Shown: positions 14,297 through 56,857 of the stretch, in pieces
Layout: each line of letters opens with the position of its first letter
Position numbering within the stretch: the first letter of the stretch is position 1
DNA from: Octopus vulgaris
Taxonomy: Eukaryota
Reading direction: 5' to 3'
Assembly: GCA_951406725.2 (NCBI GenBank)
Contig: OX597823.1
Coordinates: 84,878,001-84,942,000, forward strand
DNA length: 64,000 nucleotides
Made by a program: the position numbers and the translations under genes
The notes under the pieces: generated by a model
The model's database searches: none
Told to the model about the DNA's origin: nothing
What the model saw: the letters and a program-made list of their open reading frames with translations, nothing else

Positions 14297-14855
14297 ATAT
14301 ATATATATATATATATATATATATATATATATATTACAGATATAGGGTGAGAAAATTTTAACTTAATAAAATTAAGAAATTTCACCTAATAGTTTTTCGG
14401 TGTGGAAAAGAACCATATTCGGTAAAAACTTATAGAAAAATTTATTTTATATATAATTATAGCAATGAGGGTTTAGCAACAAGTTGCTTATAGCAATACC
14501 AAAAATTTTAGAAATAGCAGCCAAAAGAATGCTATTTCTTTTTTCTACAAAAATATGTCTCCACAGATAACAATATTTGTAACTCACATACGGCAAAAAA
14601 GAAGAAAAATAATGAAATCAAACAGTCTTCGATTAATTATGGACGCGTTTCTGAATCAGAATTATAAAATTCATTTCCGTTACCAACATAATATTTCGAT
14701 AATTATAAATCTGAAAATGCTAGGAATACTTACTCCTTTTATTTCTGACCAAGCGTGGTTAAGCCTACCCCTTATATTTCTGTCCAAGCACTATAATACA
14801 AAGAATGGACTATAATAACTGTTGTAATTTAATGATCCATAATGATCCATAGTCT

Positions 14856-14895
14856 GATATGATATTTCGGAATAAAAACTCCTTCTTCAGATACC
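14856..14895 (-). ncRNA. Minimal type I hammerhead ribozyme motif
   Basis: Minus strand reads ggtat-CTGAAGA-a-ggagt-tttt-attcc-GAAA-t-ATC-atatc; stems I and II pair, stem II with a G-U. Confidence 0.7.
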
Positions 14896-15082
14896 CCTAG
14901 GAATTGATGGAGTCGCTGGCTGCTATAATCGGTTTTACAATGGCGTTTATTGTTTCTTTTTTGTAAGCCCGTTACTTATTCTACCGGTGTCTTTTGCCGA
15001 ACCGCGAAGTTTCGGGGGCGTAAACACACCTAGATTGCTAGTCAAGCGATTATAGCAGCCAGCGACTCCAACAATTCTTAGG

Positions 15083-15122
15083 GGTATCTGAAGAAGGAAT
15101 TTTTATTCCGAAATATCATATC
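15083..15122 (+). ncRNA. Minimal type I hammerhead ribozyme motif
   Basis: ggtat-CTGAAGA-a-ggaat-tttt-attcc-GAAA-t-ATC-atatc; palindromic loop-less stem III (ATAT); predicted cleavage after 15117. Confidence 0.72.
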
Positions 15123-15317
15123 AGACTATGGATCATTAAATTACAACATTTATTATAGTCCATTCTTTGTATTATAGTGCATTGTTGTGTCATTCAAGAC
15201 ATTTTATTCTTTACAAACAATACACAATGCTTCAAGCGAACAATATATATATATATATATATATAGATATATATATATATATATATATATATATATATAT
15301 ATATATATATATATATA

Positions 15318-15858
15318 GACAGGAGTGACCGTGTGGTAAGTAGCTTGCTAACCAACCACATCTTGGGCAAATGTCTTCTGCTATAGTCCTGGGCCGACCA
15401 ATGCCTTGTGAGAGGATTTGGTAGACAGAAACTGAAAGAAGCCTGTTGTATATATATATATATATATATATATATATATATATATATATATATATATATA
15501 TATATATATATGTATGTATACATGTATGTATGTATGTATGTATGTATGTATGTATGTATGTATGTATGTATGTATGTATGTATGTATGTGTATATGTTGT
15601 ATGTATGCATGTATGTATGTATGCATGTATGTATGTATGTATGTGTGTGTTTGTGTTTGTCCCTACGACATCGCTTGACAACCGATGCTGGTGTGTTTAC
15701 GTCCCCGTCACTTAGCGGTTCGGCAAAAGAGACCGATAGAATAAGTACTGGGCTTAGAAAGAATAAGTCCCGGGGTCGATTTGCTCGACTAAAGGCGGTG
15801 CTCCAGCATGGCCACAGTCAAATGACTGAAACAAGTAAAAGAGTAAAAGAGCAAAAGA
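15318..15858 (+). mobile_element. SINE family B with internal (TA)n(TATG)n
   Basis: Head, CORE-like motif, microsatellite, near-consensus body, tail cagtca-aa-tgactg and (GTAAAAGA)n. Confidence 0.9.
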
Positions 15859-53500: not shown

Positions 53501-54802
53501 TAAATGGGAACAAAATAAAGCAGATGTATAAACAAGGTAAATAAAGAAACGCCAAAAAGTAAAGAAATGTCATCTAAAAAATAAGTGAAAGCAACGTGTG
53601 TGTATATATATATATATATATCTGTGTGTGTGTGTGTGTGTGTGTGTCTATATATGTATGTATGTGTCTGTGTATGTGTGTGTTGGCGCGAATACTAAAA
53701 GTATAGAGAATAGAGAAGGCAAAATGAGAGGAAAGGACAGCTCGGGGAGGAGAAAATAAACTTATAAAAATCAAAAGAGGCAGGCAATTTTCTAGAAAAC
53801 AAACAATGAAGGTGATGGAGGTCTGCAAAAAGAACGAAGCAAAGAAAGAAAAAAAGAAAAGAAAAGACAAACAAAGATGACAAAAAAATAATTAAGAATA
53901 AAAATATAAAGGAATAGAATGAATCAAAAGAACGTAATAAAAATGAAATAAAAAAAATCAAATAGAAAAATGGATGAATGAAACGAAATGAAATAGAATA
54001 ATTTAAAAGAATTGATACGTTGTGAAGAAAAGAATTAAATAATAAGAAGAGGAGATGAAGGGGTGAAGGAGGATTGAGGGGGAGCAGGAATTAGAATTGG
54101 GGTTGGAGAGATGGGTGACGGAAGAATTTTGGAATAAAAATGTAAGGAAATGAGATGGAGGAGACGATGTATTAATACACACATATATATATATTTTATA
54201 TATATATATATATATTTTATACATATACATATATATATATATATATATATATATATATATATATATATATGAATATAAAGAAAATTTACGATTAAGATTT
54301 AAGCCTATAACGGAGAGTAGGATGAGGTGGATTTCTGTGGAATCTGGATAGGGGTAAAGTGAAAATGTCCAACATGCATAGTCACATATATGTGTGTGTG
54401 TGTGTGTGTGTGCGTGTGTATGTCTCTTCCTCCTTGTCCTTTTGTATATATATACATATATATATATATATATATATATATATATATATAGAGAGAGAGA
54501 GAGAGAGAGAGAGAGAGAGAGAGGAGGGAGAGCGAGATTACAGGTGTTAACATCAACAAAATAGGGGAGTACTTCGTAATTATAGTAAATCGAAATATTT
54601 AATGGATCATAATTATTACTATCATGGCCGGGTTCCAACCCGAGCCGCAGCAACAAAGTCCACCCGTTACAATACTCGGTCCATCATCACTACCTCGAGG
54701 TCCTGGATACATTCCAAGCCAGTGTCTTCAATCAGGTTGTCGATGTAAGTGTGACAACGTTTTACCTCTTCTGATACATGACCATGGAGTGGGTTCCACA
54801 TA

Positions 54803-55230
54803 TGTGGCTGTGTGGTAAGAAGCTTGCTTACCAGTCACATGGTTCCGGGTTCAGACCCATTGCATAGCATCTTTGACAAGTGTCTTTTACTTTAACCTCG
54901 GGCCGACCAAAACCTAGTGAGTGGATTTGGTAGACAGAAACTGAAAGAAGCCCCCATCCCCATATATATATATATATATATATATATATATATATATATA
55001 TATATATGGATGTGTTTCTTGTTTGTGTCAATTTGTCCCCCACCAACGCTTGACAACTGATGTTGGTGTATTTACATCGCCGTCATCTGAAGGTTCGGCA
55101 AAAAGAGACCGATAGAATATGTAGCAGGCTTACAAAGAATAAATCCTAAGATCGATTTATTCGACTAAAGGTGGTGCTCCAGCATGGCCGCTTTCAAATG
55201 GCCGAAACAAGTAAGAGAGAGTAAAAGAGT
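54803..55230 (+). mobile_element. SINE family B with internal (TA)n
   Basis: Head, CORE-like motif, microsatellite, body, tail. Confidence 0.9.
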
Positions 55231-55423
55231 ATATATATATATATATATATATATATATATATATATATATATATATACAACGATCCTCGAACCCACAAGA
55301 GTAAACAAGAAAGACAGAGACAGGCAGGCAGAAACAAGGAAGATGCCACTTATATTTGAACACTATACAAATATTCTTTTAAAAAGACTTTCTTTTAATT
55401 CTTCTAAATCTTCTAAATTGTTA

Positions 55424-55459
55424 CAGTTGAAAAAGTCTTAATGACTGAAACCGGTACTG
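55424..55459 (+). ncRNA. Minimal hammerhead motif with U3-A8 core variant
   Basis: cag-TTGAAAA-agtc-ttaat-gact-GAAA-ccg-GTA-ctg; palindromic ACCGGT stem III. Confidence 0.65.
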
Positions 55460-56857
55460 AAATGTTCTTTATAAAATTATTTTAGCCTTTTCTATCCTGA
55501 CTTCTTTTTTCATATATATATATATATATATATATATATATATATATATATATATATATATAGACGATACAAAGGCGGACAAGAGAAACAACAATTAGAT
55601 GGACAGGCTAAAAAAAGATGGGTCATTCTTGGCTTTCTTTCACCAGTCAAGTCCCAGAAGTCCCGATCATTTCGGGCAGTTACACTTGAGATGTTTGTAT
55701 ATACATACATACATTCACATGCACGTGTCCGTTTTGTGTGTGTGTGTGTGTGTGTGTGTGTGTGTAGCCTTTTAACTGCCAACAATTGCCTTGCGTTTCC
55801 CATGATTTTAATGACATTGTCCCAGCCTGCTTCATTCTGTTTGATTTCTGTTCTGCAACGAGTCACATTGTTCATTATCCTGTCTCTCTCTCTCTCTCTC
55901 TCTCTCTCTCTCTCTCTCTCTCTCTTTCCCCATCCATCCTTCTCTCAGCCCTCTAGCTTTCTGCCTCCTTGACCAAGAGTTAACGCCGACATACTGATCT
56001 ACTCATAGTGTTGTACTTCGCACATTCGTTTTCGATTTGTTGTAAATATTTTTTTCTTGTCATAATATTTTCTTTACATACTCTTTAATATCCTTCCTCA
56101 CTTCACCTTAGCTTTCCGAGATCAATTTTCGTTTAACTTTGTACATTTGTTGTCCTGCTTTAACATCTATAACTCAAGCGCTCTGTGGCAAACGTGTAGC
56201 GGTGTTGACAAATGCGTCGAAACTACATTGATCCAGAATCAACAGCTGATGAAAAAATATCTTGGTCTTATTTCTATCTTGTTCTTTGAGTGTGGGGTAT
56301 GTGTGTAAAATGTGTGTATATGTGTGCGGGCGTCCATGTGAACTTGTCAGTACCAAAGTTTTCAACTATATATACACATATATACATAAATGCATACATT
56401 TGTGCATATATATGTATACATACATCTATCTGCCTCTATATCCATTTACACATATATAATGTCTGAAATTAAAAAAAAATATCGTTTATGTTTTCATAAG
56501 GCCGCTCACACACACGCATATATACCATGTGAGTAACAACGAAATTAATATACGTCAGTGTCATTGAAAGAGAGGAATACATTTGAAGCATTACACATAC
56601 GTGGGACGCTTACATACAGTTCAATGGTACATAGTAATTCCATATCCGCGGCTTACTTTGAAATCCAGCATGCAGTAGGACTGCATTTGACTTCTCAATG
56701 TTTGTATATGTCCTACATATATATATATATATATATATATATATATATATATATATATATATATATATATGTGTGTGTGTGTGTGTGTGTGTGTGTGTGT
56801 GTGTGTGTGTGTGTGTGTGTGTGTGTGTGCCTGTGTGCGTGTGTGTGTACGTGTGTA

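Follow-up and report, generated by a model that had tools for sequence, protein, structure and literature searches.

Hammerhead motifs in a 64-kb stretch of the Octopus vulgaris genome as probable truncated 3' ends of several Penelope-like families

Minimal type I hammerhead ribozymes are known companions of Penelope-like elements (PLEs) in animals. Cervera and De la Pena (2014, PMC4209133) describe thousands of them per genome in unrelated families, mostly as solo copies that are read as truncated PLEs, with forms that have an extra base, a U3-A8 core or a palindromic helix III, opposite-strand pairs 100-700 bp apart, and an intron that ends at helix I in Drosophila virilis Penelope; they also put forward the hypothesis that PLE hammerheads process tandem precursors. 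According to Craig et al. (2021, PMC8557442), the 3'-OH from which target-primed reverse transcription starts is released by the GIY-YIG nickase of PLEs, insertion into (TA)n is believed to be favoured by the Cys linker, the octopus PLE Hydra-1_Obim has both a hammerhead and a (TA)n preference, and the role of PLE hammerheads is still open. Retrozymes, derived from PLE ends (bioRxiv 10.64898/2026.07.22.740005), are defined by tandem repeats with canonical hammerheads and by small circular RNAs (PMC7229834; bioRxiv 10.64898/2026.07.22.740005). Here we analyze a 64,000-nt stretch of Octopus vulgaris DNA (assembly GCA_951406725.2, contig OX597823.1, positions 84,878,001 to 84,942,000 of the forward strand; referred to as the window, with all coordinates counted from its first base), for which an earlier note had proposed a retrozyme-like system of short hammerhead-bearing units with a Penelope-like partner. 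PMC13282606 counts 31 recently active Penelope-like families in this species, and the main text of the 2026 O. vulgaris repeat paper mentions neither hammerheads nor ribozymes nor retrozymes. PMC8557442 is the only report of a hammerhead in an octopus PLE that our literature search returned; papers under subscription, Repbase/Dfam, or the Zenodo library of PMC13282606 may already contain the families described below.

All eight hammerhead-like motifs that had been noticed in the window are present, at 14636-14692 (A), 14856-14895 (B), 15083-15122 (B'), 22714-22751 (C), 23702-23787 (D), 41750-41800 (E), 42341-42378 (F), and 55424-55459 (G). Since B and B' are the arms of one inverted repeat, they represent seven independent units rather than eight. 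The units other than F are probably 5'-truncated 3' ends of several Penelope-like families, each with its own minimal hammerhead, while F lies behind the broken open reading frame (ORF) of a PLE. The cover gradient of unit D and the layout of the units lend this reading indirect support: between hammerhead and (TA)n, the short units are arranged like the 3' ends of ORF-intact PLEs in other organisms.

The motifs stand out from their AT-rich surroundings to different degrees. A strict type I descriptor gave two matches (23707+ and 55427+) versus none in 30 local shuffles, and a scored type I scan, with controls made by shuffling within 150-nt blocks, placed 15088+, 14890-, 55427+, 23707+, and 42375- at its top with none expected per window (60 shuffles). 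Under looser criteria the scan also returned 22719+ (two core changes; 0.05 expected per window) and 14686- (one core change; 0.08 expected per window), each with 40 shuffles, and left 41750-41800 at chance level (about one expected per window). Because the scoring had been devised after the motifs were seen, and the expected counts of 0.05-0.08 depend on it, two covariance models, R1 and R2, were built solely from hammerheads in the PLE loci of other organisms (17 and 8 sequences, respectively); in the 17-row training set 92% of cells pair, with 46 double changes. In the window the first three ranks of R1 are 15081+ (E 1e-4), 14854- (E 1.5e-4), and 22712+ (E 0.012), and those of R2 are 42338- (E 2e-5), 55420+ (E 0.011), and 41749+ (E 0.011), all E-values being rough; models trained on related loci return six of the eight motifs as top hits. 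The other two, 14636 and 23702, have a long stem II beyond the reach of these short models and were not listed by them. Five motifs are beyond all shuffles, and the three decayed ones score in the looser scan or in the external models.

The type I layout with a mostly palindromic stem III, as first described, holds as well. The core (C3-G8 or U3-A8, plus GAAA) is intact in six motifs, with one change in A and two in C, and stem III is a perfect loop-less palindrome in six, being broken in E and F. The hits 15088+ and 14890- have a C3-G8 core, one additional base before stem II, a 4-nt palindrome, and a 5-bp stem I, which is the better register for the motifs at 14856 and 15083; 23707+ has a long stem II and a 12-nt palindrome; 55427+ and 42375- have a U3-A8 core; and 41750-41800 combines an intact core and a long stem II with broken stems I and III. 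Single-strand folding z-scores are unremarkable for seven of the eight motifs, as ribozyme junctions are open, and were left unused. No hammerhead family appears among the 150 of 390 Rfam rows listed for the window or in an Rfam scan of 23560-23914; the Rfam models miss these minimal forms. Taken together, these data support the motifs as Penelope-type type I hammerheads from several unrelated families.

To place them, we fetched 80 related loci (305,082 bases) with a profile from 18 homologues, and found 39 hammerheads on the sense strand and none on the antisense strand. A hammerhead lies behind the ORF in 15 of the 33 loci in which the match extends to the C-terminus (a set compiled by hand), and downstream in 12 of the 22 loci with such a match and at least 250 nt behind it. 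Related elements with a whole ORF have the same hammerhead types at the same place. The 80 loci include examples of U3-A8 cores, of palindromes of 4-12 nt, of a U-U or paired base at stem II, and of a long stem II. In most loci near the window's own PLE, stem II starts at its foot with a U-U or a paired base and the palindromes measure at least 6 nt, as in A, D, E, F, and G, whereas in more distant ones an additional base goes together with a palindrome of 4 nt, as in B, B', and C. Given these two builds, at least two PLE lineages are likely to be represented in the window. Four loci (L022, L030, L039, and L065) contain the same hammerhead twice on one strand, and in L022, L030, and L065 the two copies enclose the ORF at a distance of 3.4 kb, as in the textbook picture of pseudo-LTRs.

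The tendency of hammerheads to precede microsatellites is supported in these loci. A (TA)5 or longer tract occurs within 300 nt after the hammerhead for four of nine hits of the close group (three of the nine assigned by identity rather than by tree) and for two of 28 others, two hits being left out as too short, versus 61 of 5660 background windows (1.1%); in the close group the distance is 87-150 nt, much as in the window's units. No sequence links the units to the 80 loci beyond short chance-level matches. In the window itself the proposed placement beside (TA)n or (CATA)n holds in part: D, E, and G are flanked by (TA)n on both sides, and (TA)n is modestly nearer to 3' sides than in the background of this microsatellite-rich window (Fisher p about 0.017, seven units); the tract at the end of the unit is (CATA)n in C and (CT)n in F.

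Unit D (23557..23914, plus strand), an end-piece between TA tracts, allows a view of a whole family. Its hammerhead (23702-23787) has the long stem II and the 12-nt palindromic stem III, with a predicted cut after 23782. Sequencing contigs were aligned to 23556-23916 at 80% likeness from two DNA runs and two further runs presumed to be RNA, giving 349 and 666 contigs for the former and 48 and 101 for the latter. The family is therefore highly multicopy, and the abundance claimed earlier holds for D, the one family for which it was tested. Summed depth in run X1 climbs from 285 (23608-23646) to 77,564 (23868-23880), about 270-fold, and in X3 from 75-390 to 283,866 towards the 3' end; this gradient is the shape left by 3'-initiated copying with early stops. 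The 3' ends run into (TA)n: TA repeats follow the loose contig ends at 23900-23903, with 13 contigs in a single row of X3. Variation across copies preserves the stems: the majority variant at 23788 turns a U-C mismatch into a U-A pair, making stem I 6 bp, that at 23765 turns a G-U of stem II into G-C, and the only core variant among those listed is at the free position 7 (23711). Contigs of the family also occur in the RNA-guess runs, which may contain DNA and therefore give no evidence on expression; for 42240-46280 no RNA run is listed. An exact 21-nt search for the unit D hammerhead returned none in prokaryote genomes and none in viral contigs.

A 17-nt motif at 23853..23869 (plus) in D recurs at 14509..14525 (minus) in A with 16 of 17 bases identical, a level reached in none of 150 shuffles, so the shared downstream motif reported earlier (14508-14525 minus and 23853-23869 plus) is real. 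Beyond it, the units have no sequence in common except short chance-level matches. The motif is absent from the 80 related loci, where no more than 10 nt of it recur, in two loci that are nearly identical, and it is absent from the PMC8557442 supplement.

If the short units are truncated PLE ends, the GIY-YIG nuclease of an intact copy would nick a (TA)n tract, and its reverse transcriptase (RT) would copy the element RNA from the 3' end, usually stopping early, so that stubs of 50-450 nt would accumulate, some long enough to include the hammerhead. The source of such stubs would be intact family members at other places in the genome. The head-to-head pair at 14788-15180, with its extension on one arm, would correspond to the inverted end structure frequent in such insertions (PMC3846280). 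Cleavage is only predicted: the hammerheads would cut weakly, as dimers via the palindromic stem III, and would process the tandem precursor RNA of the parent, and solo stubs would be mostly inert. Of the eight hammerheads, three to four have already decayed.

Several observations weigh against this reading. The rows used for training the covariance models were chosen by our own descriptor; the (TA)n enrichment in the window is modest, and the ends of C and F are of other kinds; and profile searches of the window found no coding remnant outside 42945-44572 and no short unit joined to an ORF. The family-level data come from unit D alone, one of seven units, and their summed contig depth is no copy number and may include other families with the 3' motif; a further 17 variant rows and 112 loose ends lie outside the listing used here. 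Moreover, the first 40 nt of D (23556-23594) reach a depth of about 2,200 in X1 and 10,000-15,000 in X3, which is close to the depth over the hammerhead's 5' half and exceeds that of the middle 8- to 40-fold; this bump is present to some degree in all four runs and is unpredicted by simple 5' truncation. It would fit either a 5' end at a constant position followed by a variable middle or the opposite-strand end of another repeat.

The bump is one reason to consider that at least D might instead be a non-autonomous mini-element of fixed length (about 355 nt), copied in trans by Penelope-like proteins, perhaps via an RNA circle, with a conserved 5' end, a middle that varies among subfamilies, and a conserved hammerhead and 3' end, i.e., a monomeric retrozyme or a PLE-dependent short interspersed element. 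Contigs do bridge 23557-23746 in other D copies, the 6-bp stem I of the family is of canonical size, D, E, and G lie between (TA)n tracts and are 235-358 nt long, within the range of retrozyme monomers, and the 17-nt motif is common to the otherwise unrelated A and D, with the cover of D peaking over it. We nevertheless regard this as unlikely, since cover of D climbs steadily 3'-ward to an end 4-20 times above the hammerhead, X1 shows no step at the predicted cut site (20,417, 21,626, and 24,386 across 23764-23802), no go-back joint occurs in the DNA or RNA-guess contigs of D, no tandem copies occur in the window, and the bump could itself be the opposite-strand end of another repeat or AT-rich cross-matching. 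Somewhat more doubtful still is the fuller version in which D would be a new monomeric, fixed-length hammerhead mini-element in hundreds of copies, with its own 5' end, an active ribozyme, and a 17-nt 3' signal that unrelated families have in common and that would recruit Penelope-like RT and nuclease to TA microsatellites; such an element would replicate via small RNA circles in octopus cells and would stand between truncated PLE ends and tandem retrozymes.

A different objection concerns the weaker motifs (14636, 22714, and 41750), none of which passes the strict descriptor: they might be chance look-alikes in AT-rich DNA, which would leave only four or five independent hammerheads. The level of 41750 in the scored scan and the after-the-fact score behind the counts of 0.05-0.08 speak for this, but 22712 and 41749 are among the top three of the externally trained models (E about 0.01), the 14636 unit has its 17-nt downstream motif in common with D, and all three are directed towards a microsatellite 135-307 nt off, which makes the objection very improbable. 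Tandem retrozymes as such are unsupported. There is no head-to-tail array among the 150 of 165 TRF rows listed for the window or in the self-BLAST of six regions taking in all eight motifs, no go-back (head-to-tail) joint among the unit D contigs of all four runs, where contigs show presence and not absence, and the family has a gradient of 5' truncation. Lacking tandem copies, the units are not classed as retrozymes, though they have origin and helper class in common with them. The separate retrozyme-like system of the earlier note is thus not supported; the 3' layout also matches that of ORF-intact PLEs in other organisms.

The supposed partner is a dead, 5'-truncated PLE at 42238..44572 (minus), with RT and thumb at about 44572-43492, a Cys linker and GIY-YIG at about 43436-42945, and a 3' non-coding part that runs down to 42238. 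Hammerhead F (42341..42378, minus; U3-A8; predicted cut after 42344) lies in that part on the sense strand, about 570 nt behind the broken ORF and about 105 nt before the element end, and thus at the 3' end of an RT plus GIY-YIG element as the earlier note had it. The ORF region (44572-42945, minus) has at least five stops and at least three frame changes, its catalytic and Zn-binding residues are altered, and about the first 290 of 830 profile positions are missing; Pfam gave only a weak RVT_1 match (E 0.0011) and no GIY-YIG match. The order of a PLE-type RT followed by a C-terminal GIY-YIG is that of PLEs with a C-terminal endonuclease (EN+ PLEs). The CX2-5CxxC linker and CCHH motif of the Neptune/Nematis type are recognisable but decayed, with one Cys and one His changed, and are intact in the close relatives P0004, P0009, and P0015. 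The best protein matches are from Octopus bimaculoides (58% and 49%), the remainder of the 31 matches being other invertebrate and metagenome PLE proteins, and in a quick tree (79 rows, without named reference elements) the element groups with these two octopus proteins at 100% support. Self-BLAST found no repeat of the 3' end upstream of this 5'-truncated copy. It cannot mobilise anything and has no sequence in common with the short units; it is therefore a member of the class rather than a demonstrated partner.

Among the remaining units, A (14335..14787, minus) is a non-coding end-piece whose decayed U3-A8-type hammerhead (14692-14636) has one core change and which ends at (TA)n (14296-14334). 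Arm B (14788..14934, minus) has an intact minimal hammerhead (14895-14856; predicted cut after 14861), and arm B' (15044..15242, plus) is made up of the arm proper (15044-15180), in which an intact minimal hammerhead lies at 15083-15122 (plus; predicted cut after 15117), and of 62 further nt that reach to (TA)n. In the spacer (14935..15043), 14954-15048 belongs to a common interspersed repeat, of which it most resembles the copy about 850 nt upstream at 14104-14197; the two have nine non-majority bases in common that occur in none of six other aligned copies. This pattern suggests that flanking DNA may have been captured between the arms. As the spacer differs from 14104-14197 at about 10% of bases and the arms from each other at about 3%, a common subfamily is also a possible source. 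Unit C (22714..22845, plus) has a decayed hammerhead (22714-22751) followed by about 95 nt to (CATA)n, unit E (41662..41952, plus) lies between (TA)n tracts with its decayed hammerhead at 41750-41800, and unit G (55278..55512, plus), also between (TA)n tracts, has an intact U3-A8 hammerhead (55424-55459; predicted cut after 55456). The short units are non-coding, a few hundred bases long, and low in G+C, features unspecific for retrozymes.

A pyrimidine run ending in AG adjoins helix I in B, B', and G (14895-14901, 15077-15083, and 55410-55426, respectively), recalling the intron end in D. virilis Penelope, and is not kept in family D; an intron ending at helix I was rejected for D, as the AG (23696) is lost in most copies. 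The 5' flank of D (23409-23594) contains stuttered TA tracts that alternate, with a period of about 23, with ever longer portions of the start of the unit; the stutter adjoins the cover bump and may reflect slippage after insertion or repeated re-priming by the RT. The 3' tail of a very common interspersed repeat (14260-14295, 15816-15850, and 55190-55229) has a hairpin with GAAAC after it, similar to hammerhead G in its 3' half, and several hammerhead-hosting (TA)n tracts come after this tail; as a half-hammerhead it was rejected, having neither core nor stem I. Tandem repeats at 2322-2585, 6574-6939, and 33236-33710 (periods of 143, 200, and 190 nt) are built from a common interspersed repeat, and no hammerhead scored in them. 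Elsewhere in the window, perfect or near-perfect palindromes are centred on (TA)n at 25303-25506 and 39029-39146, where microRNA matches are low-complexity artefacts, and a U6 snRNA gene or copy is located at 28630-28728 (plus; 105.9 bits).

These results add octopus families to the known class of hammerhead-bearing PLEs, and the high local density, seven units in 64 kb, is useful for repeat annotation. The very large family D, with truncations on both sides of the ribozyme, provides material for asking whether the cut site shapes insertion ends, and the 17-nt motif of A and D is a testable candidate for a 3' recognition signal. The locus would gain in importance only if D turned out to be an independent mini-element that forms RNA circles.

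Compared with the animal non-LTR retrozymes (PMC7229834; bioRxiv 10.64898/2026.07.22.740005), the window units are similarly non-coding, AT-rich, type I, a few hundred bases long, and PLE-related, but they lack tandem copies and their hammerheads are of the minimal PLE type. The likeness to the C-terminal EN+ PLEs of the Neptune/Nematis type and the Hydra clade (PMC8557442) extends to the RT, the Cys linker, the GIY-YIG domain, the hammerhead near the 3' end, and the (TA)n insertion bias, while the window element differs in being 5'-truncated and dead; by eye against the Fig. S2 rows of that paper, its linker and nuclease look like the Neptune type and not like the Hydra type. The B/B' pair resembles the inverted pseudo-LTR with a 'tail' of Penelope (Arkhipova et al. 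2013, PMC3846280) in its head-to-head arms, one-arm 3' extension, and spacer of possibly captured host DNA, and differs in the length of the extension (62 nt, compared with 30-40 nt in print), the lack of an ORF between or beside the arms, and the lack of a visible target-site duplication. The closest match is the minimal hammerhead of metazoan PLEs: all motifs fit this type, with a 6-bp helix I only in the family of D. They agree with the published account (PMC4209133) in the type I layout, short helix I, and palindromic loop-less helix III, in the extra base between positions 9 and 10.1 (B, B', and C) and the U3-A8 core (A, F, and G), and in the occurrence of many unrelated families per genome, solo copies, and opposite-strand pairs. 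Unit D differs in its unusually long stem II and 12-nt palindrome, a build also found in locus L003. Every structural oddity noted in the window is already in print in that account.

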